Source: Victivallales bacterium (GTDB lineage Bacteria > Verrucomicrobiota > Lentisphaeria > Victivallales > UBA1829). Taken from it: a stretch of 64,000 nucleotides of DNA. The position numbers and the translations under genes are program-made. Position 1 is the first letter of the stretch. Each line of letters opens with the position of its first letter. The stretch spans positions 1,200 through 65,199 of the forward strand of contig JBGUKB010000078.1 in assembly GCA_045114235.1 (NCBI GenBank), in the 5' to 3' direction. Positions 3,001-26,543 of the stretch are shown here, piece after piece. The notes below the pieces were generated by a model. That model was given only the letters and a program-made list of their open reading frames with translations, did not search any database and was not told where the DNA came from.

Positions 3001-6000
3001 TCTTCGCCCGAATCCGGATCGACGGTCTTGGTGACGGTCGTCGCCATGTCGATGAAGACCTTGCTCGCGCCGGTGTAGCCGGTCACGTCGATGTTGATCT
3101 TCGCTTCGGTGGTGGCCATGCGGAGCGTGGTACCGGTGAAGTAAGCATCGGACGCAAGGTTCATTTCGCGGAACCAGTACGTGTAGTTGACGTTGACGTC
3201 GCCGGAGACGTTCAGAACCTTCTTGCCGGTGAAGGAAGTCAGTTCTGCATCTCTGGTGGAGTTGTAGTCGAGACGTCCGGCGAGCAGGTAACCCTTGAAG
3301 TCGACATCTTCGAGGTTGAAGATGAAGTCGGAGTTGCTGTTCGGAGCGTGCGTGTCCCAACCGGTGCCCCAGTTGTTGTCGAGGGCCAAGCGCATGGTGT
3401 TGCGGCCATCGCCGAAGGTGCTGTCCTTGATATTGACGGTGATGGTGCCCTGAGAGCTCTGGTCGCCGTCCTGGATTCTCCACCACTTGTCGGCGGGAGT
3501 CTCAACATTGTTGAGGTTGATGACCACGTCGGCGCCGAGGAACGTCACGGTTTCGCCCGCGATCTCGACCACATCGGTCTTGCCGACCGGGGAGTCGCCG
3601 ATGAACACGATGTCATCGTAGATGGTCGAATCCGTGAAGTTGAACGTCACGAGGGACGGAGCAAGCTCAGTGCCTTCGATGTAGGTCAGGTTGTAGCCGA
3701 TCAGCGTCTGGTTGCCGCTGGCGCTGCCCATCGTCGAGCCGGTCACGTTGAACGTGGCGCTGCCGATGATGCGGTTCGGGTGGTTCCACGGACCGTCGCC
3801 CTGATCGTAGGTGCCGGTCACGGTGCCGAGGAAGTAGCTCGTGGCGCCGGTGATGAACGTGCTGTTCTCGATGTTGACCTCGACGTCGCCGAAGTAGATC
3901 ATGTCATCGTTGGTGTAGCCGTTGATCAGGACGGGCACGGTGCTGTCGGTGAGGTACAGGTTGGCGATCTTGCCCTGGGTGCTGACATCGTAGCCGGGAC
4001 GGCCGTTGACGTACAGGCCCATGCCGTTCGACATCTTGTTGACGGCCTCGGTCAGGGAGTAGAACGCATTGACGCCCCAGAGCAGGGTTTCGCCGGTGAT
4101 GCTGTTGGTCTGGCCTTCGACGATGCCCTCGCCCGCGGTACCGAACGCGATATCGACGTAGAAGTTATCGACGCGCATCGCGTGGATGCTGTTGTCGATG
4201 TGGCTGTAGTAGGCATGGAACGCGCCGGAGCCTTCGCCGGTGAGGACGATGTCGTCATCGGTGAAGTTGGCGATGCCGGTGCCGGTGCTGAGCACGACGG
4301 CGTCGGACGCAGCCTGGACATAGCCGGTCATGTCGATGGTGATCGTGGTGCCTGCGGCCTGTTCGATGCCGCCCGCGACGGTCAGGGTTCCGGCCTTGGC
4401 GGTCAGAGCGCTGAATCCGGAGATGGACGCGACGGAGAAGTCAGTGTTGACCGTGAGGGTGCCGCCGTCGCCGGCGAGGGCGCCGATCGCGGTACCGGAG
4501 GTGTTCGCACTGACGATCACGTCGTTGCCCTTCGTGAGCGTGACGGCTTCGGCGGAGGTGCCGCCCTCGATGTAGAGGGTGCTGCCCTTGCCGACTGCCG
4601 CCGCGGCGCTCGCGACGGAACTGAACGCGTTCTTGTTCCAGACGAGAGCCATGTCGCCGATGAACTTGTCGTGGACGTCCGCTTCGGTCCAGTCGGCGTT
4701 CGCGTAGGCGTTGCCGACGAGATCGGAGGTGACGAGCAGGGTCTTGCCGTCATCGAGGAACTCGTAGCCGAAGCCAGCGCCGATGACCGAGACGGCGGGT
4801 TTCACATCGCCGAAGCCGCCTTCCACGACGAGGACCTTCTTGGTGAACTCCGCGAAGTTGGAAGCGTCGATCGTGATGGCCGCACCGTTGAAGCTGGTCA
4901 GGTTCACGAGGCTGTTGGCGTCGAGCACGACGTTGTCGAAGCCGGTGACGTTCTTGACCGTGGCGTTGCCATCGAAGTACAGGGTGCTGATGCCGGTGAC
5001 GTCTTCCTCGCCGCCGTTGACGGTGCCGCCGATGGACACGCCGTCGGCGATGGTGACCGCGGCGTCGCCGGTAACCTTGGAGAAGGTGCCGCCGGCAACG
5101 ATGACGTTCGTCACAGTCGCGCCCTTGTTGATCGTGATGTCGACGGATGCGACATCCGGAGCCGGATTGAACTGTTCAACCCATTCCGGCGCTTCGTCGG
5201 TGCCGACATTGACCATGGTCACGCTGGCGTTGGTGCCGCCGACCACGTTCGAGATCTCGCCGCCGTTGACGACGGTGGTGTAGCCGAACGTGTAGAGCGA
5301 ACCGGAAGCGCTCATGACCTGGATCTTGGCATTGACACGACCGTCGTCGACGGCCGCATAGGCCTTCTTCATCGTGTCAACGGCGTTGTCGCCGAACACG
5401 AGGTAGTTGTTCGTGCCGTCTTCTTCAACGACCGAGACGCCGGTGGTGGCTTCGCCGTAGTCGTTGCCGTAGAAGACGTCGAGGCCAGGTCTGTAGACGA
5501 AGACGCTCGTGGAGCCGACGACGGCCTTGAAGCCTTCGATCTCTTCGCCAGCCGCATCGACGTACTTGGCGGCGATTTCCACACCCTCGGCAGGAGCGTT
5601 GATCGTGGTGCCGACCACTGCGAACGTGGCGACATCGCTGTCCTTCGTGCCGCGGAGGATGAAGCCTTCGCCTTCGGACATCGAGATCGTGCTGCCGGTC
5701 AGCAGTGCGCCTTCGGCGATCTCAATGCTGTTGAACTCTCTGACTCTGCGGATCTGGCTGGTGCCGCCGGTCACGTGGAGTCTGCGGACGCCGCTGATGT
5801 TGTTCAGGCCGCCGTCGGTCTGGCCGCGGCCGCCGTTCAGGTTGCCGTCCGCCATGGTGACGCCGCTGATGTAGACATCGGCTTCGCCGCTCCAGGAACC
5901 GGTCGTATCGGAACCGAAGAGGCCGATCGCCATGGTGTCGCCGGTGAAGGTGGAGTCGGTGACCGTCAGGGTGAGATAGGTGTTGTTCGCTTCCTGCGGT

Positions 6001-9000
6001 TCCCAGACCTGGATCCACTTGGCTGCCGGAGCATTGACGTTCGACAGGGTGACGTTGACTTCCTTCAGCTGGACGTCTTCCTGGCCTTCAGCCTTGCCGT
6101 TGAAGACGCGGTCGAAGAGCATCAGGTCGCCACGGAGGTCGTAGTCGGCGACCGTGACGTTCACGGTGCCGCCGGACAGGTTGGCATAACGCGCGATACG
6201 GAAATCGTTGGTGTCATGCGTGCCCTTGGAGATCGTGATGTTCCAGGCCGTGTCGTCATAGGACTCGGTCTGCGCATTCCAGTTGCCGACGACCATTTCC
6301 TGGTGAGCACTGTCATTGCCCTGGCCTGCGATGGCCGCGAACCAGGTGAGCGTGCTGGCAGTGATCACGGCGGTGAAGTCGCCGTCGCGGAACTTCTCGG
6401 TGCTGTCATCGTTGTAGCCGGCAACGAAGCCGCCGGTGGTGATGCCGGTGACGTTCACGTTGATCGGCGCAGCCGTGAAGAAGTAGTAGAAGGCGCCCGC
6501 GGTGCCGCCGTCCGCGAAGAGCGTGCCGCCGGTGACCGCATAGCGGGCGGCGTTGACGTTCCATTCGGACATGTTGTAACCGTAGACGATCGTAGCGGTC
6601 TTGCCGTCGATGGAGACGACTTCGCCGTTCCGGTCGGCAGTGGCGTTGGCATCGAGGAACGCGAATTCACCGCGTTCGACCGCGACGAGAGCCTTCTTGG
6701 TCTCATCGTAGTACGGCATCAGGCGGTCGGCGTTGTTCTGGGCACCGACTTGCGTACGGCTGAAGGTCTGGCCGGAAACAGGCTGGATGAAGTTGGCAAT
6801 GCCGTTGGCAGGCGCCAGGAGGTTGCCTGCGCCGCCCTTGTAGCCATCCATGTTCACGACGAGTTCGCCGCCCTTCTCGATGTAGGAGATGCCGGTGCTG
6901 ACGTTCACGTTGTTGCCGGCGCGGAAGCGGAAGTACTGGATGCCGTCCATCGTGGCGATGGAGGTAGCCTTGGAACCAGCCACGTCATTCGCGATCACGC
7001 GATAGCCGACCGTGGAACCGGCGACGCCCGCGAGGGAGCCGATGGTAACCGCGGAGGTGCTGGCGGTGATGCGGACGGTGGAGCGGTGATCGGCATCGGC
7101 GCCGTCGCCGATGACGAAGCCGCCGAACGAGCCGCCGTCGATCTGCAGGTTGACCTGGCCGATGCTGGTGAGGTCATACGTGCCGGAGAAGTTGCCGTCG
7201 AGCACATACAGCGTGTAATCGCTGGTGGTGTGGGCGATGGCTTCTTCCATGGTCTTGAACGCGTTCACGCCGTAGACGAGGAGGTCTCCGTTGTAGGAGA
7301 GGCCGTAGACGTCTTCGGTGAAGCTGCTGCAGAGGTAGACGTTGCCCGGGTCGGTGGAGACGAGCCATAGCTCATCCTTCCCGTTGTAGTAGTACTTGTC
7401 ATCGCCGTCAGCGGTGATGGTGATCGTCTTCATGTCGAGGTCCGCGAGGCCTTCGGCCTTCAGCACGAGCTTGCTCGGGCCGGTGTATTCGGCGGAAGCC
7501 AGGTGGATAGACTTGAGGTCGAGCGCGCCGTTGACGGTGAGGGTGTCGTTGCAGTCGATTTCGAGCGCGGTGACCGAGAGGTCGCCGGAGATGGTGGCGT
7601 TGGCCGTGACGGTCAGTTTGTCGAAATCGGTGACGTTGCCGCGGACGTTGACGGCTCCGGAGATCGTCAGGCCGCTGGTGCCGCCGGTGACGCTGTCCTT
7701 GGAACCGACGATGTCGCCGCCGGTGAAACCGGTGACGGCCGGTTCGACGCTCTCATCCGTGTACTGGAAGCCGAACGTGCCGCCCGCGAGTTCGAGGTTC
7801 GCGTTGCCGGAAACGGTCTTGCCTTCCTCGGCGATGGTGATGCCGGCGAAGAGGCCGTCGGAAACGACGAGGTTCACGAACGCGGTGGAATCCTGGTCGG
7901 CGATGGTGCCGTACAGCGGATCGAGCTCTTCAGAGGAACCGAAGGTGCCGCCGGTGATGTACAGCGCGTTGCCGGCCTTCAGAGCCGCCTTGGCAGCTTC
8001 GAAGCCGACGAGCTCGTCGTAACCTTCTTCTTCGCCGTAGGCGTTGCCCTTGACCACGACTTCTTCGCCGTCGAGGACCGTCAAGGCCATCGCTTCGCCG
8101 GTCGGGGCGATCTGGCCGACGACCACGTCGTTGCTGGTGTAGCCGGGGTTGTAGTACAGGTCTGCGACGGAGTCGTTGTCCCAGATGACCAGGCCCTTCT
8201 TGCCGGCCAGGAGCTGGTACTTCGCGGCATCCTGCTCGAGGTTGAGCTCGATGCCCGCGGCGTCGTTCGCGAAGCCGTTGGACAGGCTGACCAGGACCTT
8301 GGAGGCGCCGGTGTAGCCCTTGGCGTCGACCTTGACGATACCGCTGTCGCGGAACGTGATCGTGCCGCCGGAGAGGAACGTATCCACGTTCATATCCAGT
8401 TCCTGGAACCAGTTCGCCCACTGGATGAAGTTGGACGACCCCTTGATGATCAGGGTGGCGTAGTTGCCGCCGCCGACCGAGTTGTTGGTGAGGCCGGACG
8501 CGGACAGGAGCGCGTTGACGTGGGAGTTCTCGACCGTGAAGAAGATCGGCGAAGCGTCGCTGTGACGGTCGTTGTTGCCGTCGCCGAACGCCGCGATACG
8601 GGCGTTGTTGCCGCCCGTGCCGGGCATAATCGTCGAGTTCTTGATGGTCAGGCTGATGGAATCGAACTGACCCCAGTTGGTGACCTGGGCCAGGCCGATC
8701 CACTTCGCGCCGCCGCCGAACGTGACGTTGTCGAAGGTGACGTCAAGGACGGGGTGGACTTCGGGATCACCGATGCCGGTGCCGGAATCGCGCGTACCCG
8801 CACGGGCGTCGCCGAAGATCGGCTTGAGGTCGCCGCGGATGTCCCAGTTCTTGAAGGTCAGCGAGAGGGTGCTCTGGAGCGTGGCCCACTGGCCGAAGAA
8901 CCGCAGGTTGCTGTCGTTGCGGCCATTTTCCAACGTGATCGTGATCGGGGCATGATAGCTCAGGGACGTGTTGACGCGTTCCCAGGTATTGCCTCGGCCG

Positions 9001-12000
9001 AGGATATCGTTGAAGTTCGAGTTGTCGGCATTGTTGTTCTGGCCGTTCTCATCCGGGGAGATCGGAAGGAGGCTGCCGTCAATCGTAATGGTGACCGGAG
9101 TGTAGATGTGCGTATCATTCGGGGCACGGTTGCGGTTGATCGGATGGAGTCTGCTGACAGTTCCGCCGACGACGTACAGATTGAGTGCGCTCGTATTGGA
9201 CGGATTGACCAGGCCTTCGTTGTAGTTGGTGACATACAGCGTGCCGCCAGTAATGACCTTGCCCATGGCGGTATTCAGGTCGCTGAAGGCGTTGGAGCCC
9301 CACTGCAGGACGTCGCCGTTGAACATCGTCGTGCCGGTGATCTCTTCCGTGAAGGTCGGATCGAAGTAGATGCGCGTGAGGTCCATCAGGAACACTTCCT
9401 TGCCGGAAGCATAGACGGTGACGCCCGGATCGCAGGCGTACTGGGTCACGCCGGAGATGCCGGCGGTGGTGCTGATGACCTTGCGCAGGTTGGTGCCTTC
9501 TTCGGTCGCGACAGCGGCGCCGGTCAGGTAGATCGTGCCGCCGGAGAGGTCGATGTAGCCGGAATCCAGGAAGCTGGCGGTGCTGACGGTGAGGAGCTTG
9601 ACGCCCTCGATGCCGCCGACCTTGGAGCTGCCTTCGAGCAGAAGCACGGTGTCGTCCGCGCCGGCGATCACGCCGTCGACCGTGACGTTGTCGCCGAGGG
9701 TGATGGCCGCCTTGGTGACGGAGTAGACGCCTTCGCCCGCGGTGAGGGCGATGCCGCCGACGCTGCCCGCGTCGATCGTGATGCTCATTCCACTGGCATC
9801 GGTCTTGTCGACGCCGTAGATGTAGCCTTCGACCTTGCCGCCTTCCATGGCGAAGTTGGCGCCGTTCAGGTGGATCTCGTCGGCGAGCGTGCCGCCGGTG
9901 ACCGTCACGGTGTAGTCGTCAACGGGGTTGCCGAGGTTGGCGACCGCATCGGCCGCGGTGTTGAACGCGTTGAAGCCGAACTCGAGGTAGGTGCCGTCGG
10001 CGAGGTAGGTGCCGGTGGTGGCTTCCGAGTAGTCGGCGTTCAGGAACGTGTTGGTCGGGATCGTGCTCTTCAGGACGATTTCCTTGCCGTCCGCGGTCTT
10101 GAAGACGCTGTATTCGCCGCCTTCGTTGCCGAGGATCTGGATCTTGCCGACGTCGCCGGTGATGCCGTCGGTCGTGGAGATCACGACGTGCGAGCTGCCG
10201 AGGTAGTTGGTCGCGTCGATCGTGATGACCGCGTCGGAGAAGTTCAGGCTGTCGGCCGTGATCACGTTGTCCGCGAACATGGAGATGCCGGAGCCGGAAA
10301 CATCGCCGAAGTCGACGACCGCGCCCTTGGCGACCTGGACGTCTGCGAAGTTGGCGACATCGCCGAGAATGGCGTTGCCCTTGACGTTCATCGTGGACTT
10401 GCCGGAACCATCGGCGGAACCGATGACGGCGCCCGCCGCGACGGTGAGGGTCGAAGCCTTCCTGTCGCCCATGGTGACGGTGCCGAACTCGACGCCGCTC
10501 TTCACGTCAACGTTGTTGCCGTTGAAGTTCTGGGCTTCGTAGGTGCCGCCGGTGACGACGATGGTGCCGCCCCATTCGGAGGCGTAGATCAGAGGCTTCT
10601 CGAAGCTGGCGTGCGCGTTGCCGCCGAAGAACAGCTCCTTGCCGCCGACGGTCTGGCCGCTGATGTCGTCGGTGTAGGTGTCATTGACGTACATGTCGTC
10701 GGTCTTGTCGAACACGCCGATACGGCTGACGACCCAGCGGTCGCTGTTGTTAGCGGTAACATGGCGGAAGCCGCTGACGATGATTTCGCACTGGCCGGTC
10801 AGGTCGTTGTCGCCGATGACCGAGATGCTGCTCATGGCCTCGTCGGTGTAGATTTCGCCGGCGGTGATCACGGTGTGCGTGCCGCCTTCGTAACCGGACA
10901 TGTTGACGTAGATGTTGATCGGGGTGCCGGCGTTGTCGAGGACGTCCGTCGACAGGTTTTCGCCGCGGTAGGCCGTCGTGAACTGCAGGTTGTTGCTGAG
11001 TTCAAGTCTGGCGTCCGCGTCGATGATCAGGGTATCCCATTCCATGACCCAGCTGGCACGCGTGACGGCGCTCTTCTCCGTCGCGACGATGTGCAGCGTG
11101 GTCGGGGCGTTGAACACCTGGAGGGCGTTCGCGCCGTGCGTCAGGGAGTCGCCGGGACGAAGGGTGTTCGTCACGGAGGAACCGCCCATGGTGACGGTGA
11201 CGCTGCCGGCCGTGAAGGTGGACTGGTAGATGTTGGCGCCGCTGTTGGCGACCCAGTCGGCCGTGTGGATCACATAGAAGTGCTCACCGACCGTGGAGTC
11301 GTACACTTCGACGTTGATGTTGGCATTGATCTTGGTCGGCGTGGAGCCGCTCATGTTGATGCCGTAGAAACGTCCGAGGTAGGAATCTTCCACCGTCAGG
11401 TTGATGTCGATCGGGTCTTCTTCCTTGGTGCCGAAGTCGCCGTAGCCGATGTAGACCGAGGTGAACGTGCTGCCGACGATGGAGGCGTTGATGTCGCCGT
11501 CGATCACGCTGGTGTAGGTGTTGCCGGTGATGTAGAGGGCGCCGCCGTTGGTGTTGGTCGCGTTGAACGTGAAGTTGCCGTTCATCGTGTACGCCTTGTT
11601 CAGGCCGTAGATGGAGGTGGTGACGTTCGTGCCGACCAGCACGGTGGTGTGGTCGTTGTCGCTCACGAAACGGTCGCCTTCCGTGCCGTAGAGGCCGGAG
11701 GAGCCGCCGTTGAACTCGAGGGCGGTGTCGATGACGGCGCTGCCGCGCTGTCCGTCGTTGGTGGTGAAGCCGACCAGGACGAGCATGCCGTTGTCGGCCT
11801 GGGCCGCCGCGATCGCTTCATCCTTCGTCGCGAAGACGTTCACGCCCGCGAAGAGGGCGTCGCCCGTCGCAGCGTCAACGGTATCGCCGTCGACGAATGC
11901 GGACTGGTCTTTGCGGAAGTAGACGCGGTCGGCGGTAACGAGATATAGGTCGCCCGCGTGCACGGCTTCGCCGGTGAGGACCTTCGCGGCATAGGATTTC

Positions 12001-15000
12001 TTGCCGGTCGGGGTGATGATCGTGACCGTGGAGGCGTCGAGCGTGACCTTGGTGGGATCGACGTCGAGGACCAGCGTGGAGCCGGAGCCTTCTTCCGCGT
12101 CGATGACGATCTTGGTTTCGGCGGGCATGGTGCCGGTGAGGGTCAGGACCGCGTCGGCGTCGATCGTGAGCGTGGAGGCGGAGGCGATCGTGTCGATCGT
12201 GCTGTCGTCGTCGATGTAGATGGTCTTCGCGGTGACAGAGCCGACCACGGAGTCTTCGATCTCGACGTCGAATCCGGCTGCGACAACGTCCATGCCGGTA
12301 TTGTCGCCGGTGATGACGATCTTGGCGCCGGCCTTGGCGGCCGCGACTGCATCCGCGACGGACGCGAACGCGTTCTTGCCGAAGACGAGCGTATCGCCGT
12401 CGACGACGATCTTCTTGTCCGCGGAGAAGGAAGTGTTCACATAGAGCTCGTCGAGGGAGTAGATCGTGACGGAGGTCTCGGTCTTCACGTATTCGTAGAG
12501 GCCGGCCTTCGCGCCTTCGAGCTTGATGGTCCAGTCGTTCACGCCGCCTTCGGCGCGGACGATCTCGTTGGCGCCGGTCAGGCCGCCGACGTTGACCGTG
12601 ATGGTCTTCGTGCCGGAGGTCGTGAGGTTGCCGGAGACGACGAGGTTGGAGGTGTCGGACATGTAGATGCTGCCGCTGAGGGTCAGGGCGTTCTCGAGCT
12701 CGGGTTTGGCCTTGTTCGTGAACGCGACTTCCGAGTCGGCGTTGATCGTGATGTTGCCGTCGATCACGGCGCCGCCGGTGACGTACAGCTGGGAGGTCGT
12801 CAGGTCCTTGACGCCGGTGAGGGAACCGGCGCTGATGAAGCCGGTGTTGACCAGATTGGCATTGTTCAGGATCAGGCCGCCGTTCTGCGTGAAGACGCCG
12901 TCTCTGGACGTGGCGCGGAAGAACAGGTCGCCTTCGTTCTTGAAGGTGCCGCCAACGGAAATGTCACCGAGGGCAGTGATTCTGCCGTCGTTGAAGAAGT
13001 TGCCGCCGATGATCGCAGCGCTGGTCATGACGAAGTCGTAGTTGTTCAGGTTGCCGACCAGGAGCAGCGTGACGTTGTTGGGCTCGGCGAGATTGCGGTA
13101 CGTGCCGAGCACGCCGTAGTTGTCGAGGTTGGCGGCGCTGATGACGCCGGCGTTGATGCCGCGGCGGTTCAGGATGTCGCCGTTGATGATAAGAGTGTTC
13201 TCCAGGGAGACTTCACTCTTGTCCGTGCCGTTCGAAACGTTCAGCGTACCGCCGGTGACGTTCAGGGCAGTGAAGTTCTCGACGGAGCCGACCTTCGCGT
13301 TGCCTTCGACGTTCAGGATGCGGGCGGTGCCCTTCGTGCCGCCGTCGAGAGCGCCGGTCACGGACGCGCCGTAGATCAGGCCGTAGAACGTGCCGTTGCT
13401 GCGCTGTGCGACCGTGCCGCCCTTGAGGGTGACGTCGACCGCGCCGGTGATGTTCGCGCCGTTGCCGATGGAGACGTCGGAGAACAGGCCGCCGGCGAGG
13501 GTCATGTCGACCGTGCCGATGGTGTTGTTGCTGGCGCCGACGACGAGCTTGCCCGCGCCGCCGGTGATGCTGGCTTCGATCGCGCCGACCTTGTTGGCGA
13601 CGCCGGTGATGACCGCTTCTTCGCCTTCGCCTTCGACGGTGGCGTCGGCGATGATCAGGTTCGAAGCGACGACTGCATCGCTGTAGACGAGTTTGTCACG
13701 ATCGGCCGCGGCGGAGGAGAGACCAGCCACGTAGTTGCCGACGGTGGAGCCGGCGAGCTTGATGGAGGTGCCCTGTCCTTCGGCGTACACGTTTCCGATC
13801 ATGTTGCCGCCGGTCAGGTCGTTCGTGGCCTTGCTCGCGCCGCCGTAGACGTTGCCGATGGTGGAGCTCTTGATCGTGACGGTGCCCGCGAAGCCTTCCT
13901 GGTCGGCAAGCTTCACGTCGCCGATCACGCTGTTGCCGATGGAAATATCGGCAGCGCCGACGGCCGCGCCGGTCAGGTCGATGGTGCCGATGCCGGCGAC
14001 GTCTTCGTCCCCGGAATAGTCAATCGAGAGCTTCGCAGCGCCGGTGACATTGCCGACCTTGATCGCATTAATATTATTTGTATAAGTGGCGGAGAAGTTC
14101 GCGGAAGCGACATCGGCAGCGGTATCGCCGAGGACGATGTCTTTTCCGTTGAGGTCGATGTTGTGGACATCGCTGCCGGAGAACGAAGTCACGTAGTCCT
14201 TCGTCACGACGTCCGCATCGAACGTGGTCGGCTCGACGGACGTGTCGTCGCCGTAGACCATGATCGTGGTCGTGGCCTTGTCGGTGACATGGGCCTGCGC
14301 CGAGGCAACGGAGACGTAGCCCTTCGGGCCGAGTTCGGTGGGCTGGTCGTCAGCGTAGTTGCTGTTCACCAGCAGGACGGTGCTCGTGGCGTTGTGGAGG
14401 ACCAGCTTGTCGCCGGAGAGCTCGTAGTAACCCGGGAAAATACCCTTGGTATATTCGTGATCGCCGACCACGATGGCCAGGTCATCGGAAATGCCGGTGT
14501 CGGAAAGACCGGAAACGAGCACGGTGTCGGGCTCGGAGAGGTCGCCGATCACATAGATCGTGGAAATATTGGCGAGAGAAGCGACATTGACGGTGGAACC
14601 GAGCGCGATGCTCAGTTTGCCGCCGTCGGCCACGGTGATGCTGTTGGCGCGGACTTTGGCGCCGGCATTGACCGTGACGTTTTTGAAGCGGTCGATGGTG
14701 CCGGTGACGGTCTGGATGTCGGACGCGCCGAGGATCAGGTCGAACGTATCCACTTCCGGAGCGTCGCCGTTGCCGTTGCCGCGGATGTTGGCCGCGACCG
14801 ATCCGGCGACTGTGAGCTTGTAGGAGCCGGTCCAGTCGCCCGGGTTGTTGAAGTAGCCGATGTTGATGTCGCCGCCGACGCTGGATCCGGAGATGACGAC
14901 GTTGTAGTTGGCCGCGACGGTCTTGTTGCCCTGGCCGCTGTCGGTCTGGACGCCGCGGAAGGAACCGCTCACGGTCACGTTGGAAACGGTGCCGATCACG

Positions 15001-15623
15001 TTCGCGAGACTATCGGGATTGTTCTCGTTGTTGAGCTTGCCACTGTGAATGTGGAAGTCGCCGTTGGTCACGGCCGTATTCGTCACGGAGAACTTGATGT
15101 CGCCCCGGATCGTGCCGTACTGCTGGTAGGTCGTGCCGCCGCCGATCGTCAGGGAGTTGATCGTGGAACCTTCGACGTTGACGTCGACAAGCCCCTCGAT
15201 GACGATGTCGTTGCGGAGAGACGCGGGAGCCAGCGTATTGCGGACCAGCGAGTTCACCAGCGTGATCTTGATGCCGTTGCTGTACGTGCCCGCGGATTTC
15301 TTGGTGCCATACAGGTAGTTGCAGGACGCGCCGGACAGATAGAGGCCGTAGGTCCCGTCGCTGTAGAAGCTGTCGTTGTCGACGTTGTAGTTCGAGAGGT
15401 ACATGGTGGCGCCTTCGGCAGCGTAAATGGTCTGGCCGCCGAGCGTGATCCACTTCTTGGAAGTACCGGGATTGACGGCGTTCGCACCGTCCGTCACGTC
15501 GCCACCACTGGCGCCGTAAGTTAGCTTTTCCCCAGTGATCGAACTGGTACCGCCCAGCGCGTCGATCGCTTCCTGGGATGTATACGCCGGATCGACGTAC
15601 ACATTGCCTTGTGCTCTTGCCAT
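1..15623 (-). CDS. Giant repetitive surface/adhesin-like protein. The 5' end is complete and the 3' end is cut by the window edge (>5,200 codons). Contains beta-helix-type modules, tandem ~180-aa modules and FG-GAP-like blades
   Basis: ATG at 15623 with AAGGAG at 15632-15637 (8-nt spacer). Hand translation gives MARAQGNVYVDPAYTSQEAIDALGG...WITLGGQTIYAAEG at the N-terminus. Near position 1 it gives ...YDMNANGKADSVLVG...GDFTGSGKDSVVMSYAGGQVFYTVGIDGAATHLTNSDLGW. The track lists no minus ORF in this frame (end mod 3 = 2), which fits a frame with no stop inside the window. The three big plus ORFs are the codon-aligned antisense frame. Confidence 0.8.
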   Translation of the reverse strand, partial: MARAQGNVYVDPAYTSQEAIDALGGTSSITGEKLTYGASGGDVTDGANAVNPGTSKKWITLGGQTIYAAEGATMYLSNYNVDNDSFYSDGTYGLYLSGASCNYLYGTKKSAGTYSNGIKITLVNSLVRNTLAPASLRNDIVIEGLVDVNVEGSTINSLTIGGGTTYQQYGTIRGDIKFSVTNTAVTNGDFHIHSGKLNNENNPDSLANVIGTVSNVTVSGSFRGVQTDSGQGNKTVAANYNVVISGSSVGGDINIGYFNNPGDWTGSYKLTVAGSVAANIRGNGNGDAPEVDTFDLILGASDIQTVTGTIDRFKNVTVNAGAKVRANSITVADGGKLSIALGSTVNVASLANISTIYVIGDLSEPDTVLVSGLSDTGISDDLAIVVGDHEYTKGIFPGYYELSGDKLVLHNATSTVLLVNSNYADDQPTELGPKGYVSVASAQAHVTDKATTTIMVYGDDTSVEPTTFDADVVTKDYVTSFSGSDVHNIDLNGKDIVLGDTAADVASANFSATYTNNINAIKVGNVTGAAKLSIDYSGDEDVAGIGTIDLTGAAVGAADISIGNSVIGDVKLADQEGFAGTVTIKSSTIGNVYGGASKATNDLTGGNMIGNVYAEGQGTSIKLAGSTVGNYVAGLSSAAADRDKLVYSDAVVASNLIIADATVEGEGEEAVITGVANKVGAIEASITGGAGKLVVGASNNTIGTVDMTLAGGLFSDVSIGNGANITGAVDVTLKGGTVAQRSNGTFYGLIYGASVTGALDGGTKGTARILNVEGNAKVGSVENFTALNVTGGTLNVSNGTDKSEVSLENTLIINGDILNRRGINAGVISAANLDNYGVLGTYRNLAEPNNVTLLLVGNLNNYDFVMTSAAIIGGNFFNDGRITALGDISVGGTFKNEGDLFFRATSRDGVFTQNGGLILNNANLVNTGFISAGSLTGVKDLTTSQLYVTGGAVIDGNITINADSEVAFTNKAKPELENALTLSGSIYMSDTSNLVVSGNLTTSGTKTITVNVGGLTGANEIVRAEGGVNDWTIKLEGAKAGLYEYVKTETSVTIYSLDELYVNTSFSADKKIVVDGDTLVFGKNAFASVADAVAAAKAGAKIVITGDNTGMDVVAAGFDVEIEDSVVGSVTAKTIYIDDDSTIDTIASASTLTIDADAVLTLTGTMPAETKIVIDAEEGSGSTLVLDVDPTKVTLDASTVTIITPTGKKSYAAKVLTGEAVHAGDLYLVTADRVYFRKDQSAFVDGDTVDAATGDALFAGVNVFATKDEAIAAAQADNGMLVLVGFTTNDGQRGSAVIDTALEFNGGSSGLYGTEGDRFVSDNDHTTVLVGTNVTTSIYGLNKAYTMNGNFTFNATNTNGGALYITGNTYTSVIDGDINASIVGSTFTSVYIGYGDFGTKEEDPIDINLTVEDSYLGRFYGINMSGSTPTKINANINVEVYDSTVGEHFYVIHTADWVANSGANIYQSTFTAGSVTVTMGGSSVTNTLRPGDSLTHGANALQVFNAPTTLHIVATEKSAVTRASWVMEWDTLIIDADARLELSNNLQFTTAYRGENLSTDVLDNAGTPINIYVNMSGYEGGTHTVITAGEIYTDEAMSSISVIGDNDLTGQCEIIVSGFRHVTANNSDRWVVSRIGVFDKTDDMYVNDTYTDDISGQTVGGKELFFGGNAHASFEKPLIYASEWGGTIVVTGGTYEAQNFNGNNVDVKSGVEFGTVTMGDRKASTLTVAAGAVIGSADGSGKSTMNVKGNAILGDVANFADVQVAKGAVVDFGDVSGSGISMFADNVITADSLNFSDAVITIDATNYLGSSHVVISTTDGITGDVGKIQILGNEGGEYSVFKTADGKEIVLKSTIPTNTFLNADYSEATTGTYLADGTYLEFGFNAFNTAADAVANLGNPVDDYTVTVTGGTLADEIHLNGANFAMEGGKVEGYIYGVDKTDASGMSITIDAGSVGGIALTAGEGVYSVTKAAITLGDNVTVDGVIAGADDTVLLLEGSSKVGGIEGVKLLTVSTASFLDSGYIDLSGGTIYLTGAAVATEEGTNLRKVISTTAGISGVTQYACDPGVTVYASGKEVFLMDLTRIYFDPTFTEEITGTTMFNGDVLQWGSNAFSDLNTAMGKVITGGTLYVTNYNEGLVNPSNTSALNLYVVGGTVSRLHPINRNRAPNDTHIYTPVTITIDGSLLPISPDENGQNNNADNSNFNDILGRGNTWERVNTSLSYHAPITITLENGRNDSNLRFFGQWATLQSTLSLTFKNWDIRGDLKPIFGDARAGTRDSGTGIGDPEVHPVLDVTFDNVTFGGGAKWIGLAQVTNWGQFDSISLTIKNSTIMPGTGGNNARIAAFGDGNNDRHSDASPIFFTVENSHVNALLSASGLTNNSVGGGNYATLIIKGSSNFIQWANWFQELDMNVDTFLSGGTITFRDSGIVKVDAKGYTGASKVLVSLSNGFANDAAGIELNLEQDAAKYQLLAGKKGLVIWDNDSVADLYYNPGYTSNDVVVGQIAPTGEAMALTVLDGEEVVVKGNAYGEEEGYDELVGFEAAKAALKAGNALYITGGTFGSSEELDPLYGTIADQDSTAFVNLVVSDGLFAGITIAEEGKTVSGNANLELAGGTFGFQYTDESVEPAVTGFTGGDIVGSKDSVTGGTSGLTISGAVNVRGNVTDFDKLTVTANATISGDLSVTALEIDCNDTLTVNGALDLKSIHLASAEYTGPSKLVLKAEGLADLDMKTITITADGDDKYYYNGKDELWLVSTDPGNVYLCSSFTEDVYGLSYNGDLLVYGVNAFKTMEEAIAHTTSDYTLYVLDGNFSGTYDLTSIGQVNLQIDGGSFGGFVIGDGADADHRSTVRITASTSAVTIGSLAGVAGSTVGYRVIANDVAGSKATSIATMDGIQYFRFRAGNNVNVSTGISYIEKGGELVVNMDGYKGGAGNLLAPANGIANFIQPVSGQTFSRTQVGAQNNADRLMPYYDETKKALVAVERGEFAFLDANATADRNGEVVSIDGKTATIVYGYNMSEWNVNAARYAVTGGTLFADGGTAGAFYYFFTAAPINVNVTGITTGGFVAGYNDDSTEKFRDGDFTAVITASTLTWFAAIAGQGNDSAHQEMVVGNWNAQTESYDDTAWNITISKGTHDTNDFRIARYANLSGGTVNVTVADYDLRGDLMLFDRVFNGKAEGQEDVQLKEVNVTLSNVNAPAAKWIQVWEPQEANNTYLTLTVTDSTFTGDTMAIGLFGSDTTGSWSGEADVYISGVTMADGNLNGGRGQTDGGLNNISGVRRLHVTGGTSQIRRVREFNSIEIAEGALLTGSTISMSEGEGFILRGTKDSDVATFAVVGTTINAPAEGVEIAAKYVDAAGEEIEGFKAVVGSTSVFVYRPGLDVFYGNDYGEATTGVSVVEEDGTNNYLVFGDNAVDTMKKAYAAVDDGRVNAKIQVMSASGSLYTFGYTTVVNGGEISNVVGGTNASVTMVNVGTDEAPEWVEQFNPAPDVASVDITINKGATVTNVIVAGGTFSKVTGDAAVTIADGVSIGGTVNGGEEDVTGISTLYFDGNATVKNVTGFDNVVLDANSLVNLTSFNGAAITIDASNFAEFTKKVLVVEGGFGDVKPAVSVIGAGFGYEFLDDGKTLLVTSDLVGNAYANADWTEADVHDKFIGDMALVWNKNAFSSVASAAAAVGKGSTLYIEGGTSAEAVTLTKGNDVIVSANTSGTAIGALAGDGGTLTVNTDFSVASISGFSALTAKAGTLTVAGGIEQAAGTTITIDMTGYVQAASDAVVLSTGTGIANFTDDDIVLTGEGSGAFHAYYSHIDNSIHAMRVDNFYVDIAFGTAGEGIVEGQTNSITGETLLWGVNAFYSLTEAVNKMSNGMGLYVNGRPGYDVSTQGKIANLYLTDSTVPVLINGYTNDDMIYFGDVEVNIENSTFITGATSYFLGTVTGTYDQGDGPWNHPNRIIGSATFNVTGSTMGSASGNQTLIGYNLTYIEGTELAPSLVTFNFTDSTIYDDIVFIGDSPVGKTDVVEIAGETVTFLGADVVINLNNVETPADKWWRIQDGDQSSQGTITVNIKDSTFGDGRNTMRLALDNNWGTGWDTHAPNSNSDFIFNLEDVDFKGYLLAGRLDYNSTRDAELTSFTGKKVLNVSGDVNVNYTYWFREMNLASDAYFTGTTLRMATTEAKINIDVTGYTGASKVFIDMATTVTKTVDPDSGEETVTVTGGFENITEAGISVIGLEEGSPYSLVFGYETAGETPVLNAVVLKGAVKDIYVNSDYTAETVKVGASYDGEALFYGENAFGSATEAIPALTADDAVLYVTGGKVTTSALKSNSISIDATAQLNYNGSDVITINGSLVNDGKFMISAAPFVDGTTTDILVLTATAIFGDGSFITDDSAYTINVVGNEVHLNMKKLDVFVNALWEGEEAGSVVEVPGGTAIIGSDAFATADAAAAAVSANGSITILASDVQFSNPIVRTVTATADSTVEGSEGNGLAIGTGTAVGSLTLQSGAVAVNANVRGKGVLTVESGAKVTGGLGMLTGAAVSFAEGSILDFDISAQSAGASASVTNYSILTGAPTITITIAADQADGTYALATEAASFSSNAVLQTSAGKIGDLVFGQKVQIDGIDYTLALDDNNVLSLTKEVFVAPITVTYANSEWTGAKAGDVVATGATFGYNAFLTGDEAYDTVVDYGEVKVLGGTASFTKDIAKTLTVNAEATIAGNAVFTTNVTINGTVAFDTQYAANGAQFGGFQYVTGDTKYTLTAAAVAGTWTLASDATGFASDIAFGNTTLKLGEAAIIGDFSYTVSLVDTNGDLILTVAAYVPPTPETPEVTYANSEWSNKQAGDTVTVGTKTATIGYDAFATLAGAIAGTTDDGKVFVVGGEVSFADGYSKTITVEAPATVVGKATFDTAITINGTVAFDTANATAEAAQFNGFSKVFGTTSYTLSVATAAAGTYLLASDAATFNSDVLFGNYTLKVGAEATVIGDFTYALAITDNSDLALTIAEKPVPPTPTYIAKSDVNANGISDVMFQYTGGQGQIGFWLDGTSTWQSTNATHPVDTWEVLGAYDMNANGKADSVLVGNVEVSGIKGAFIGYYLDAMDTDDNWVNISYLTNNEGYVWKNKVGNMTGNEGKNSILWHSTELGALGVWTDGTDNWVSLGAGYDANWEMIGCGDFTGSGKDSVVMSYAGGQVFYTVGIDGAATHLTNSDLGW

Positions 15624-15653
15624 AGCTTTTTCTCCTTGGTTGTTAAGCTAGGT

Positions 15654-15983
15654 TTACAAGTTTGTTGCGAGATTGATACTTTTTGTGTTTGGTTTGCCTT
15701 TCTCTTTCTGGGTTGTGTTTGGGGTTTCCTTTCGGGTTGTTGGTTGAGTTTGAATGCGGGATGAGAAAAAAATCGTTCTGGTTAAGCTCGAACTCGCGGA
15801 TTCCGGTTCCGCCTGAACGGAGCCGGGGTCCGCCGGGGAGGTCTCCCTGCACACGGCGTCCCGTTTCCAGCGAAGCGCCCGGACGAGGCGGCGTTCCGGC
15901 ACAACGCGGGCGCACGCGAAAAAGCGCGGAGCATCAGCCCCGGCGCGGCTCGCCGTTTCCGCCTGTTTCCAGTTCGTCGTCAT
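15654..15983 (-). CDS. Hypothetical 109-aa upstream ORF, same frame as the giant gene and separated from it by TAA and TAG
   Basis: ATG at 15983 preceded by GCAGGAGGCAAAACG (AGGAGG, 7-nt spacer). The first ~60 codons are GC3-rich like real genes. The C-terminal half is low-complexity (A/C-rich DNA). No recognisable family. Confidence 0.25.
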   Translation of the reverse strand: MTTNWKQAETASRAGADAPRFFACARVVPERRLVRALRWKRDAVCRETSPADPGSVQAEPESASSSLTRTIFFSSRIQTQPTTRKETPNTTQKEKGKPNTKSINLATNL

Positions 15984-16507
15984 CGTTTTGCCTCCTGCGG
16001 TTTCCCGCGGTCGTTCCGTTCGCTTCTCCGGCTCCGGGGTTCGGTTCCCGGAGCCGCTTCTCCGAACCGCCTGTGCGGCTCTTCGATCGAGTTCAAGTCA
16101 GTGAAAATCGTATCCGTTTGCCTGAATCCGGTTCAGGCGCCGCCTGCGCGGCATCCATCGTTCCGTCCGGCGTCTTTTCCGTCCGTCTCCGCCCTGCCTC
16201 ACCCGGCTTCCGCCGAGTTCAGTTCAAGTTCGGATGGCCGGCCTTCCGCCGTCCGGGGTTCCCGGCTTACCACCCGGTCCCGGCCTCCTGTTCCGCTCGT
16301 CTGCTGTTCGTTTCGTTCATGGTTCGTATCTCGTTTCGGTTTGTTCGTTCGTTTCTGTTCAACTCTGCCCTGTGCCGTCCTGTGCCGTTCGTCCTGTCCG
16401 TTTCCGTCCGTTCTTCCGTTCGTTGTTTCCGTCTTGTATCCTGTTCGATTTTTTGAGCTTGTTTCTTGTGTTTTGCCCGCTCACAGGCGTTTTATTTATA
16501 TATTTCT
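15984..16507 (-). other. Long untranslated leader or ncRNA-like region, strongly T(U)-depleted on the minus strand and GGA-rich
   Basis: The plus strand is almost free of A (about 11 A in 16261-16500). About 30 GGA triplets occur on the minus strand in ~460 nt, clustered as ACGGA/CAGGA. No credible ORF. All three plus frames are open only because stop codons need A. Confidence 0.4.
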
Positions 16508-16514
16508 CGCGTAT

Positions 16515-16542
16515 ATTATACACGATATACAGCGAAATTCAA
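16515..16542 (-). promoter_or_regulatory. Candidate sigma70-type promoter for the leader and giant gene (TTGAAT-N16-TATAAT)
   Basis: Minus strand TTGAAT (16542-16537), 16-nt spacer, perfect TATAAT (16520-16515). It sits at the edge of the AT-rich intergenic block. Confidence 0.3.
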
Positions 16543-16785
16543 ATGTACTTTTTGTCGAAAAACATGTCTTTTTTAGAAATAATCGCTTTATGCTTAAAAA
16601 ATCCGAAAAGGCGGCGCAATTACGGGAAGACCTTTCCGCATGATTCGAAAACGCCGTGAGACGTGCTTTCGGGACACGGCGCATACCACCGGTCCTGCAA
16701 GGTGGCAAAGCGACATCCGAGACAACATCCCGGATGGGCATAAAAACGCCCGCAAAAGAACCCCCCGAAAACGGCGAAGAACAGG

Positions 16786-16816
16786 ATAAGACTTATAGGT
16801 CATATAAGACTTATAG
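16786..16816. repeat. Tandem direct repeat ATAAGACTTATAG x2 (period 18 nt). Each copy contains the palindrome ATAAG-A-CTTAT. Operator-like
   Basis: Exact 13-nt copies at 16786-16798 and 16804-16816, separated by GTCAT, in the AT-rich divergent intergenic region. Confidence 0.6.
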
Positions 16817-17325
16817 TTTTATTTTGTTTCGCGATTTTCATTCTGTGTTTTGCAAAGAAGATAATAGCAGTTTTTTTACAAAAAGAACAACAGTTTAATA
16901 TCGGCACAAAGAATGCACAAACAAGACGAACGAAAATTAACAAATCATACAACCGGAAACCATCTGTTTTTCATGCAAAAGACACTACATGAAACGAAAC
17001 AAAACTTTTCTACATTGTTTTGCTTTTAGTCATACTCTTTTTTTCGTGATTCCGTTTTATGATGACCGGATCATGGATCGGACGACACGAAACATGCTTT
17101 CCCCGGCTGATTTACCGATCGTCACGCGCCTTCGCGGCTGGCATCGCGCGAACAAATACTACATAAAAAAAAGCATAAAATACATTTCTTTTTTATAAGC
17201 GAGGTGATATATTATTTGGATTGCAGCACGCGGCCCTGTTCATTTCGAGCACGATTCGAACGGCCGCGGCACAGACTTGAACAAGCTTCCCATAACACTA
17301 TCAACCCCGAACAGGAGACAACATC

Positions 17326-18759
17326 ATGAAGTTCTTCCGTATGATGAAGGGCCTTATGCCGATCCTCGCGGCGGCCGCCACGACCGCCTGCGCACAAACG
17401 ACCGCGGAATCGCAGTTCGACCAGAACGTCGTCAAAATCCCCGCCGACAAGCAGAAATTCCACATCTTCCTGCTGACCGGCCAGTCCAACATGGAAGGCG
17501 CGGGCTATCCCGTCCTGCCGGAATACCTGACCGGCACGACGCAGGTGCTCGAGCTGAACGACCAGATGGAGTGGGTGAAGAACGTCGCTCCGTACGGACG
17601 CGGCTACGGCCCGGGCGAATCCTTCGCGCTGCACTATGCGAAACTGCATCCGGACGTGACGGTCGGCCTGATCCACGCGGCCCGCGGCGGACGCAGCATG
17701 CGTGAACTGAGCAAGGGCGGCCGCGACAACACCGACCGCGCGCCGAACTACGACAACCTCATCAAGAAGATCAAATTCGCGCAGGAACAGGGCGAGGTCA
17801 AGGCGATGCTCTGGCACCAGGGCGAATCCGACACCGGCAACCGCAACTACATCAACGAGCTCAACAAGCTCGTGACCGACGTCCGCACGGACATCGGGAT
17901 CGCCGACCTGCCGCTCTTCGTGGGCGAGCTCGGCCGTTACGTGAACTGGACCGACGGCTTCAACCGGATGATCCAGGACGTCGAGTCCAAGATCGAAAAC
18001 TGCAAGCTCATCAGCTCTCAGGGCCTGATGCACCGCGGTGACGAGCTCCACATCTCCGGCTACTCCGTCAATACCTTCGGCTGCCGTTACCTCGACGCCT
18101 ACCTGAAGATGCGCGAGCCCGAGACCGCGAAGAAATTCGCGCCGCTCCTCGCCGAAATCGAAAAGAAAATGGCGGAATACGACGCCCGCTGGGTCACCGT
18201 CGAAAACGGCGACATGACGATGGGCGAAGACCGTCCGCTCGGCTGGGAAGCCCGCCGCTGGGACCCCATCCGCATCAATCCCCACCGCGACACCGAAGTT
18301 TACGCCTCCGCACCCGCCTCGCTGCGCATTGAAAACCTTGATCCGGCGACCGCCCTTCCCTCGGTCCAGGAAATTTCGACGGCTCCCGGCGCGGACGGCA
18401 TCGGCACCTGGATCCGCGACGTGGCAGGCACGCACGTGAAGGTCTCCTGCAAGGTGAAGAACGAAGGCTACAGCAAGGTCACGATCCGCATCCGCGGCGA
18501 AAACTCCGGATTCCAGCGCTGCCTCGACCTCCAGCTCTTCGACGCCACCGACGCCAAGGAATGGACCAGCTACTCCGGCGAATTCGACATCCCGGCGCAG
18601 GCCATCCGCGACCGCATCGGCATCCTGGTCGAAGGCAAAGGCAAGGCATGGCTCGACGACGTCGTGATCGAAAAGGTCAAGAACGGGCAGACCATCCCCG
18701 ACACCAAGATCGACGTCGAGTATGAGAAGAAGATGAACGAAAGCTTCTCCAAGCTTTAA
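17326..18759 (+). CDS. SASA/SGNH-type carbohydrate (sialate-like) O-acetylesterase with a C-terminal carbohydrate-binding-like domain. Secreted or lipoprotein
   Basis: GQSNMEG motif, WHQGESD, signal peptide MKFFRMMKGLMPILAAAATTAC, RBS CAGGAGA upstream. The minus ORF 17212-18849 is its shadow. Confidence 0.8.
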   Translation: MKFFRMMKGLMPILAAAATTACAQTTAESQFDQNVVKIPADKQKFHIFLLTGQSNMEGAGYPVLPEYLTGTTQVLELNDQMEWVKNVAPYGRGYGPGESFALHYAKLHPDVTVGLIHAARGGRSMRELSKGGRDNTDRAPNYDNLIKKIKFAQEQGEVKAMLWHQGESDTGNRNYINELNKLVTDVRTDIGIADLPLFVGELGRYVNWTDGFNRMIQDVESKIENCKLISSQGLMHRGDELHISGYSVNTFGCRYLDAYLKMREPETAKKFAPLLAEIEKKMAEYDARWVTVENGDMTMGEDRPLGWEARRWDPIRINPHRDTEVYASAPASLRIENLDPATALPSVQEISTAPGADGIGTWIRDVAGTHVKVSCKVKNEGYSKVTIRIRGENSGFQRCLDLQLFDATDAKEWTSYSGEFDIPAQAIRDRIGILVEGKGKAWLDDVVIEKVKNGQTIPDTKIDVEYEKKMNESFSKL

Positions 18760-26238: not shown

Positions 26239-26543
26239 GGTTTTCGCGCGCCTTATACAAAGTATTTAAAACACAAAATAATCTTTTACTTTATCACGGA
26301 TTCTCTAAAAAGTCAAGCGCTGAAAAATGTTCCCCTTGGCATAAGAAACAGGCATTTTCAGCGTGCCGCAGTTCAATTATTTTTTCCTTATTTTTCTACG
26401 CGCATCCGGTTGATTTTTCTTTCATCGGCTGTATGTTATACGAAGACGGCAGACCGCCGCACTCTGCGGAAAATACGTCTGATATGCCCTGCAATCTCCA
26501 CCTCATACCGGCACGCGCCGGGAAAGGATCCGTCCCCGTGAAC

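Follow-up and report, generated by a model that had tools for sequence, protein, structure and literature searches.

Giant bacterial genes, of at least 15 kb, are costly to express and especially exposed to premature Rho termination and mRNA decay, and we know of little on how bacteria protect or gate them. In the tna operon of E. coli, the tnaC leader peptide is followed by a rut site. The leader bound by TRAP carries 9-11 (G/U)AG triplets separated by spacers of 2-3 nucleotides (nt), and Rsm proteins reportedly control the mRNAs of giant adhesins such as lapA. Here we describe a stretch of 524 nt (15984-16507, minus strand) upstream of a giant gene, in a window of 64,000 nt (the whole stretch of DNA analysed) from an uncultured Victivallales bacterium. 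The giant gene occupies 3-15623 on the minus strand, with 5207 codons inside the window, and its open reading frame (ORF) corresponds to C78:899-16822 of the contig. The stretch is very probably a cis-acting leader of an mRNA that carries a small ORF, hereafter ORF2, and the giant gene, and it most likely controls the expression of the latter, not through CsrA.

The locus resembles several described leaders in part. The E. coli tna leader and the mgtA/corA-type leaders with Rho-dependent termination (PMC5314796) share with it a leader ORF adjoining a Rho-loading-like tract upstream of a structural gene, in an organism that encodes Rho. However, ORF2 spans 109-130 codons instead of about 24, the tract lies inside ORF2 and not after it, and there is no sign at this locus of an arrest peptide or a ligand. 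The Bacillus trp leader, whose repeats bind TRAP (PMC3913778), likewise has purine triplets with two-base spacers in a 5′ leader, but here the triplet, although similarly spaced at 5 nt, is GAA and not (G/U)AG, its copy number ranges from 5 to 19, and no TRAP gene was found in the genome. The CsrA/Rsm leaders and sponges (the pgaA leader, CsrB, RsmY/Z) are comparable in the long leader before a surface-structure gene and in the many GGA, one of them within the Shine-Dalgarno sequence; this genus, in contrast, has no detected CsrA, its GGA are neither A(N)GGA-enriched nor conserved, and the best Rfam score is below threshold. Antitermination leaders (EAR RNA, HK022 put, ops/RfaH, UpxY, LoaP) also combine a long conserved leader with a very long transcription unit, and this genome has NusG paralogues as well, but there is no family match, the resemblance to ops is limited to 5 nt, and the paralogues are unlinked to the locus. 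In a search of the literature on purine-rich leaders with Rho or antitermination, which went no wider, none of the papers listed describes such a leader.

The most striking property of this untranslated leader is its composition. The minus strand of 15984-16507 contains 182 A, 129 C, 174 G and 39 U by base count, that is, 7.4% U and 68% purine, whereas the coding sense strands of the genome average 18% U. Over the whole genome and both strands, only 1496 of 5,152,560 windows of 524 nt (0.03%) are equally poor in A or T, and none of the 6141 coding-sense windows reaches 68% purine. The T(U) depletion pointed out in the original prediction is therefore real, and it is kept in evolution, with 5.5-10.6% U in the leaders of all 19 full-length relatives; the accompanying figure of about 11 A on the plus strand of 16261-16500 caught the depletion but not the number, which is 14 (counted as U on the minus strand). 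Among 15 other U-poor windows listed from this genome, nine overlap a predicted gene, with sense strands made of GAA/AAG/GCN-rich low-complexity coding sequence; the gene model of the genome is crude and at times on the wrong strand. Because the plus strand of the stretch is nearly free of A, stop codons are rare in it and ORFs extend over it, three of which (15683-16456, 16101-16643 and 16234-16659) were rejected as coding: the structured part of the leader has lengths in all three modulo-3 classes among relatives (11, 9 and 4 loci), and a repeat array described below has a period of 5.

The count of about 30 GGA on the minus strand was exact, although their density is barely above expectation: dinucleotide-preserving shuffles give 24.7±3.1 GGA, and 61 of 1000 contain at least 30. 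The A.GGA word is also within chance (11 vs 8.4±2.7; at least 11 in 212 of the 1000 shuffles), and CGGA alone is clearly enriched, with 20 occurrences against 9.0±2.6 and no shuffle reaching 20; ACGGA makes up 10 of the 30 GGA. Seven of the 30 are kept in at least 90% of the relatives, none of them among the eight of the dense run that had drawn attention, and the minimum-energy fold leaves seven of the 30 entirely without pairing. The GGA richness is probably a by-product of a purine-rich CGGA/GAAC composition.

That the stretch is the leader of the giant gene, as first proposed, is supported by its position downstream of a conserved promoter-like site, by its conservation within the genus, by hairpin changes that fit only the minus strand, and by contigs from RNA libraries. 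The promoter is of the sigma-70 type (TTGAAT-16-TATAAT, 16515-16542, minus strand; 10 of 12 matches in a consensus scan) and is the single good promoter-like site on that strand; its -35 element and extended -10 are invariant or nearly so among relatives, and it would place the transcript start near 16507, as predicted from sequence. No terminator-like site was found on the minus strand between this promoter and 15984. The leader thus delimited measures 501-673 nt in the 19 full-length relatives. At its far end, the giant gene has the Shine-Dalgarno sequence AAGGAG (15637-15632) and the start codon ATG (15623-15621; the feature spanning 15621-15637, minus strand), and this ribosome-binding region, AACCAAGGAGAAAAAGCTATGGC, is preserved almost letter for letter in all ten genus loci, two of which have an extra A in the A-run.

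Conservation at related loci, one of the checks named in the original prediction, came out clearly positive. In a DNA search of 40 relatives, the whole 937-nt leader region is present at 75-80% identity in 9 of 15 congeners, and elsewhere only one marginal match of 50 nt was obtained. An orthologous giant gene follows the leader in all ten genus loci. A metagenome scan added 19 loci, and after dropping three exact duplicates and two near-identical rows (99.3%) there are 24 distinct leaders, of which 19-24 cover any given segment. The blocks of the leader differ pairwise by 0.07-0.25 per nucleotide, as against 0.36 where the coding region begins. A search with the N-terminal 300 residues of the giant protein detected them in 5 of the 15 congeners (36-69% identity) but nowhere among 185 further genomes from the order, and five pieces of the protein searched against Pfam gave no match. 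Its N-terminus (15400-15623, loci L002-L010) is far more variable than the leader and shows several alternative N-terminal extensions. Within its own genome the leader matches only itself (blastn, word size 7), and a covariance model of the 3′ half of its structured core (R1) has a single hit in each of 10 of the 16 genus genomes and, across 44 further genomes from the family, only two marginal matches (E 0.001 and 0.003). None of 4227 Rfam families reached its threshold in 15000-17800 on either strand.

ORF2 begins one base past the flagged interval, at 15983, and runs for 109 codons to 15654 on the minus strand, preceded by the Shine-Dalgarno sequence AGGAGG (15991-15996). The original prediction had regarded the region between the giant gene and the divergent esterase gene as devoid of any credible ORF, a view that the frame of ORF2, kept in 22 of 23 related loci, contradicts. 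In the nine other genus genomes where the frame stays open, its length is 109-130 codons. Its N-terminal part varies from 164 to 236 nt among 23 loci and takes ten different lengths, 22 of the 23 falling into the same class modulo 3, and all but one of the 13 distinct indel events have a length divisible by three. Since the frame is kept while the adjacent structured leader uses all three length classes, the reading frame is under selection, and we read ORF2 as a translated leader ORF. The peptide itself shows no selection beyond the nucleotide level: the ratio of nonsynonymous to synonymous differences per site (pN/pS) is 0.78, compared with 0.75 in an out-of-frame control, and the synonymous sites of ORF2 are as constrained as the rest (pS of 0.29 vs 0.60 in the giant gene). 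ORF2 has no match in Pfam, and its 117 predicted homologues in metagenomes bear no functional name, eight being labelled ‘hypothetical protein’ and the others nameless. An AlphaFold prediction returned no fold, with a predicted local distance difference test (pLDDT) of 53.7 and a predicted template modelling score (pTM) of 0.11. Between the ORF2 stop and the ATG of the giant gene there are 30 nt here and 19-22 nt in seven of the ten genus loci, and in two of the ten ORF2 overlaps that ATG.

The 3′ third of ORF2 coincides with an A/C-rich, unstructured tract (15651-15806, minus strand), whose predicted folding energy is -0.05 kcal/mol per nt and whose nucleotide sequence is highly conserved. 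The description of 15660-15760 as containing A and C only was an overstatement, the actual composition being 50 A, 33 C, 11 G and 7 T (82% A+C). From the promoter to the giant gene, this tract is the sole C-rich, G-poor bubble, with C minus G of +0.17 to +0.23 per 78-nt window. The same bubble in the tail of the ORF is found in all 19 full-length relatives (+0.17 to +0.29, as against a leader maximum of at most +0.10), although as a rut-like site it is defined by E. coli rules only. Indels of 1-2 nt in the tract occur around a conserved run of 5-8 U (15766-15772, minus strand, from the alignment), and the frame-shifting length differences between relatives cluster at this run in an RNA otherwise poor in U; the run could be a pause or slippage site. 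No conserved strong hairpin precedes it among the relatives. An intrinsic terminator at this position was considered and found unconvincing, a 4-bp GUUC/GAAC stem being present in 12 of 22 minimum-energy folds and broken in the others, and a second terminator-like candidate (15942-15927) was rejected as well, its hairpin being conserved and its U-tract not.

Upstream of ORF2, the leader contains a structured, hairpin-rich core (15984-16334, minus strand), characterized by folding and pairing counts as a conserved series of G-C hairpins whose loops consist of purines. Its hairpins on the minus strand are, from 5′ to 3′, Hg (16277-16262), Hf (16217-16202, with a GNRA loop), He (16152-16139), Hd (16138-16120), Hx (16110-16084), Ha (16081-16064), Hb (16056-16029) and Hc (16010-15994, with a GAAA loop), two of the core loops being of the GNRA type. 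The core folds better than its shuffles in 23 of 23 loci, with a mean z of -3.2 (-6.4 to -1.1) and -0.38 kcal/mol per nt. When eleven helices defined from the folds of the individual sequences were counted on the alignment, 94.8% of 1237 helix cells were paired, compared with 24-46% when the partners were slid by 1-3 columns. Changes on both sides of a pair were seen in 31 cells, against 12.5±3.4 in shuffles (none of 500 reaching 31), and involve six pairs of Hf, Hd, Ha and Hb. Alternation of C-G with U-G is seen at many pairs and, together with the compensatory changes, fits only a minus-strand RNA. The last hairpin, Hc, overlaps the Shine-Dalgarno sequence of ORF2, with the G at 15995-15994 paired to C16010-C16009, and its outer pairs are C-G in 19 and 20 of the 23 loci. 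In five metagenome loci (L139, L142, L143, L150 and L152; columns 115-400 of alignment A1), a U-free module of about 60 nt, which contains …CCGGAAACC…GAGCGGAAGCGAGGCGAAGGCGAGGCGGACGGCG…, occurs in 2-4 tandem copies that stretch the leader to 658-673 nt.

The most conserved block of the leader (16268-16321, minus strand, from the alignment) can be read as an upstream ORF (uORF) of 17 codons (MNETNSRRAEQEAGTGW*). The two sides of this reading do not agree: in favour of coding, the block is 54 nt long in 22 of 23 loci and 51 nt in one, and its stop is always TAA or TAG, but divergence at the three codon positions (0.083/0.115/0.023) makes the third the most conserved, which speaks against it.

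How such a leader could serve a giant gene is suggested by what is known of Rho and RNase E. According to PMC6144790, Rho contacts 5′-YC dinucleotides over about 60-80 nt of single strand, and strong Rho terminators do not occur where C>G bubbles are missing; sites cleaved by RNase E are distinguished by a U located two nucleotides downstream (PMC5222698). The genome encodes RNase E/G and RNase Y, and also Rho (PF07497, 106.9 bits at C78:65283-65504 on the minus strand, just past the end of the window), in an ORF of 781 codons, so much longer than E. coli Rho that a large insertion or extension seems likely. YC dinucleotides number 36 in the leader, compared with 83±14 (minimum 41) in the 6141 coding windows, and no 78-nt window wholly inside it has more C than G. 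Being so poor in U and in pyrimidines generally, it would thus offer no intrinsic terminators, hardly any YC contacts for Rho, nowhere an excess of C over G, and little for a U-dependent RNase E to cut. RNA polymerase and its RNA would in this way survive half a kilobase without ribosomes. The sole Rho-loading-like tract, A/C-rich and unstructured, lies inside ORF2, just before the giant gene, where translation of ORF2 would cover it and bring ribosomes to the giant-gene start. The structured core, or a molecule that binds it, may set the translation of ORF2, the last hairpin pairing two G of its Shine-Dalgarno sequence, and if ORF2 were left untranslated, Rho could halt transcription before 16 kb have been committed.

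As a whole, the proposal of an untranslated leader of about 524 nt in a two-cistron mRNA (promoter, leader, ORF2 and a giant surface-protein gene), with a role in evading Rho and nucleases and in gating ORF2, is plausible to us at a confidence just short of even. Its anatomy, conservation, frame constraint and composition pattern are observed; gating by Rho is a tentative, rather doubtful mechanism whose functional steps are all inferred from them.

Several points weigh against this proposal. The scarcity of YC follows arithmetically from the low pyrimidine content and hence is not independent evidence. The Rho rules are those of E. coli, and PMC6144790 also warns about Rho proteins with N-terminal insertions; the Rho ORF here has 781 codons. 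The helices were derived from the very sequences on which they were counted, and are therefore favoured over the slid controls; a blind RNAalifold run on the 622-column alignment gave only two compensatory pairs, with a covariation term of -0.6, and Hc, the hairpin that touches the Shine-Dalgarno sequence, never varies and so draws no support from covariation. In one of the ten genus loci ORF2 stops 100 nt before the giant ATG, so the tract is not always covered, and in 6 of 22 loci the tail of ORF2 departs from the majority length class modulo 3. Contigs from RNA libraries are unstranded, and they can neither show co-transcription nor map transcript ends. Finally, replication slippage alone could maintain the composition of the repeat array that occupies the 5′ part of the leader.

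This array (16335-16462, minus strand), delimited by alignments, word counts and folding energy, is variable and unstructured and consists of GAAC pentamers. It contains the dense GGA run of the original prediction, which thus falls, at 16462-16335, into the least conserved part of the leader (pairwise difference of 0.37-0.49, gaps of 27-53%), and its length varies from 94 to 202 nt across 23 loci. Those 23 arrays hold 211 GAAC words, 38±6 being expected, with 5-19 per array, and of the 345 intervals between successive GAA, 127 measure exactly 5 nt, where 10.5 would be expected; the number of GGA per array in relatives, by comparison, ranges from 0 to 11. With a folding energy of -0.09 kcal/mol per nt (genome mean, -0.34±0.08), the array is essentially unfolded. 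One reading is that GAA(C) words at 5-nt spacing line up on an oligomeric protein that binds single-stranded RNA, with a logic like that of TRAP, and that this binding decides what becomes of the leader; candidates would be the only RRM protein of the genome (an ORF of 98 codons, C56:1615-1827), the basic ORF2 peptide or another protein. The excess and spacing of the words, the lack of structure, and the persistence of 5-19 GAAC in every array despite an unconserved sequence all favour such a binder. However, TRAP (PF02081), CsrA, Hfq and ProQ were all not found in the genome; no comparable array exists elsewhere in it, the only denser locus being a period-6 GAACCT/GAACCG repeat, so a dedicated binder would have a single target; and slippage likewise yields period-5 repeats of variable copy number. 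On balance we hold a protein-binding array to be unlikely. A NusA boxC-type GAAC site was also considered and dropped, since NusA KH binding depends on AUA/AUU (PMC2724277), which the U-free array lacks.

The same features can be turned around. The array could be a slippage-prone pentanucleotide repeat without function, tolerated in the 5′ untranslated region, with function confined to the core and ORF2. Its length range and period of 5, a divergence and a share of gaps unmatched by any other zone of the leader, and the duplication of the core module of about 60 nt (2-4 times in some lineages) would all suit this possibility, but the array is present in 23 of 23 loci and has never been lost, and YC dinucleotides in the arrays are depleted even for their own composition (90 vs 181±10). 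We see this, too, as an improbable explanation. A broader scheme can also be drawn, a so far undescribed giant-gene module in which a U-free leader invisible to Rho and a GAACN array, acting as a counting platform for an oligomeric RNA-binding protein, would be joined to a core gating a disordered leader ORF that masks the only Rho entry, and by which commitment to 16 kb would be tied to translation capacity or to a signal; this scheme is speculative and, in our judgement, distinctly unlikely.

Apart from these views of the array, the structured core, or a DNA element within it, could act as a processive antitermination element that makes RNA polymerase resistant to termination over the 16 kb gene, on the models of EAR, put and ops with a NusG paralogue. 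A very long gene after a long, conserved and structured leader fits this idea, as do two NusG-domain paralogues encoded besides the canonical NusG and an invariant TGGTA(A/G) resembling the GGTAG core of the 12-nt ops element GGCGGTAGCGTG. Nevertheless, the match to ops is limited to that 5-nt core. According to PMC5995543, ops has essential G4, G5, A7 and G8, a C3:G8 pair and a TG pause, whereas here C3 is replaced by T, 10 of 23 loci have A at position 8, and the TG at 11-12 is missing; the NusG paralogues lie together on contig C135 and not beside the giant gene, and the antitermination families of Rfam gave no match at E up to 1. An antitermination element is accordingly quite improbable. 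The two paralogues (C135:25173-25451 and 26419-26634, plus strand) are about 1 kb apart in a low-G+C stretch left unannotated by the crude gene model, and this pair may mark a polysaccharide-type locus with UpxY-like factors.

Transcription bears on another alternative, a separate, abundant small or processed RNA produced from the leader (about 15840-16110) and acting in trans. In three rumen RNA libraries, all from one study, contigs include 15757-16278 and the coding region, but none of at least 90% identity covers 16366-16713 in four runs (X8 has none from 16192 and X5 none from 16279), a zone too variable between strains for this absence to carry meaning; the low contig cover at 15583-15756 is likewise no evidence. 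The summed contig depth is highest at 15844-16017 in all three libraries (12753/3317, 2938/1549 and 4793/2503, against 23-1096 in bins of the coding region), as a separate RNA would have it, although such contigs have neither strand nor ends and their depth is unfit for ranking parts of a gene. Moreover, a conserved leader gathers contigs of many related strains and a divergent coding start does not, 15984-16507 has no terminator-like site, and the depth peak spans the start of ORF2. The contigs show the presence of the locus in RNA libraries and nothing beyond, and there is little probability in a trans-acting RNA.

As for the CsrA/RsmA-type recognition put forward in the original prediction, with numerous A(N)GGA sites that would serve to titrate or recruit a protein of the CsrA family, the 30 GGA, the ten ACGGA and a weak RsmY match (18.1 bits, E 0.18, over ordinary hairpins at 16064-16158; no other Rfam family matched at E up to 1) are outweighed by the lack of any match to the CsrA domain PF02599 in the genome itself (90.8% complete) and in the 15 other genus genomes, its detection in only 1 of 60 genomes of the family, a chance level of A.GGA, the poor conservation and accessibility of the GGA, a relative without any in the array zone, GAAC as the actual repeat word and an RsmY score far under the gathering score of 57, so that we give it hardly any credence. 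Of the other regulators sought in the genome, neither Hfq nor ProQ domains were found.

Around the leader, a few further features deserve mention. Just upstream of the -35 element lies an A/T-rich box (AAAAAG.ACATGTTTT....AAAAA.TACATT; 16543-16576, minus strand) with an ACATGT core, near-invariant in alignments of 10 and of 24 related loci, which could serve as an UP element or bind a regulator. The AT-rich spacer that separates the leader promoter from the divergent esterase gene contains, at 16786-16815, 3.3 copies of a 9-nt repeat unit, ATAAGACTT. The extended -10 10-mer of the promoter, TATAATATAC, has 35 copies in this 61% G+C genome (for example on C78, C56, C1 and C37), usually followed by A/C-C, and it looks like the standard extended -10 and start region of the organism. 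In the 300 nt after it, the leader promoter has 20 U and the 34 other sites have 41-103. One of those others precedes a second purine-rich, U-poor non-coding stretch (C56:17250-17558, plus strand), which has 41 U in 300 nt, resembles the leader in milder form and lies before a gene of 436 codons whose first 80 residues are largely hydrophobic.

The locus represents a conserved natural design in an uncultured rumen lineage of Victivallales without detected CsrA, Hfq or ProQ, made up of a leader starved of pyrimidines, a structured RNA that has no Rfam family and a leader ORF, read as translated, over the sole Rho-loading-like tract. Should the inferred logic fail, what stands is a genus-specific structured leader RNA with no function assigned. 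If it is true, it would provide a rule, open to testing, by which long leaders escape Rho although no ribosomes translate them, and a handle on the regulation of surface fibres in gut Victivallales.

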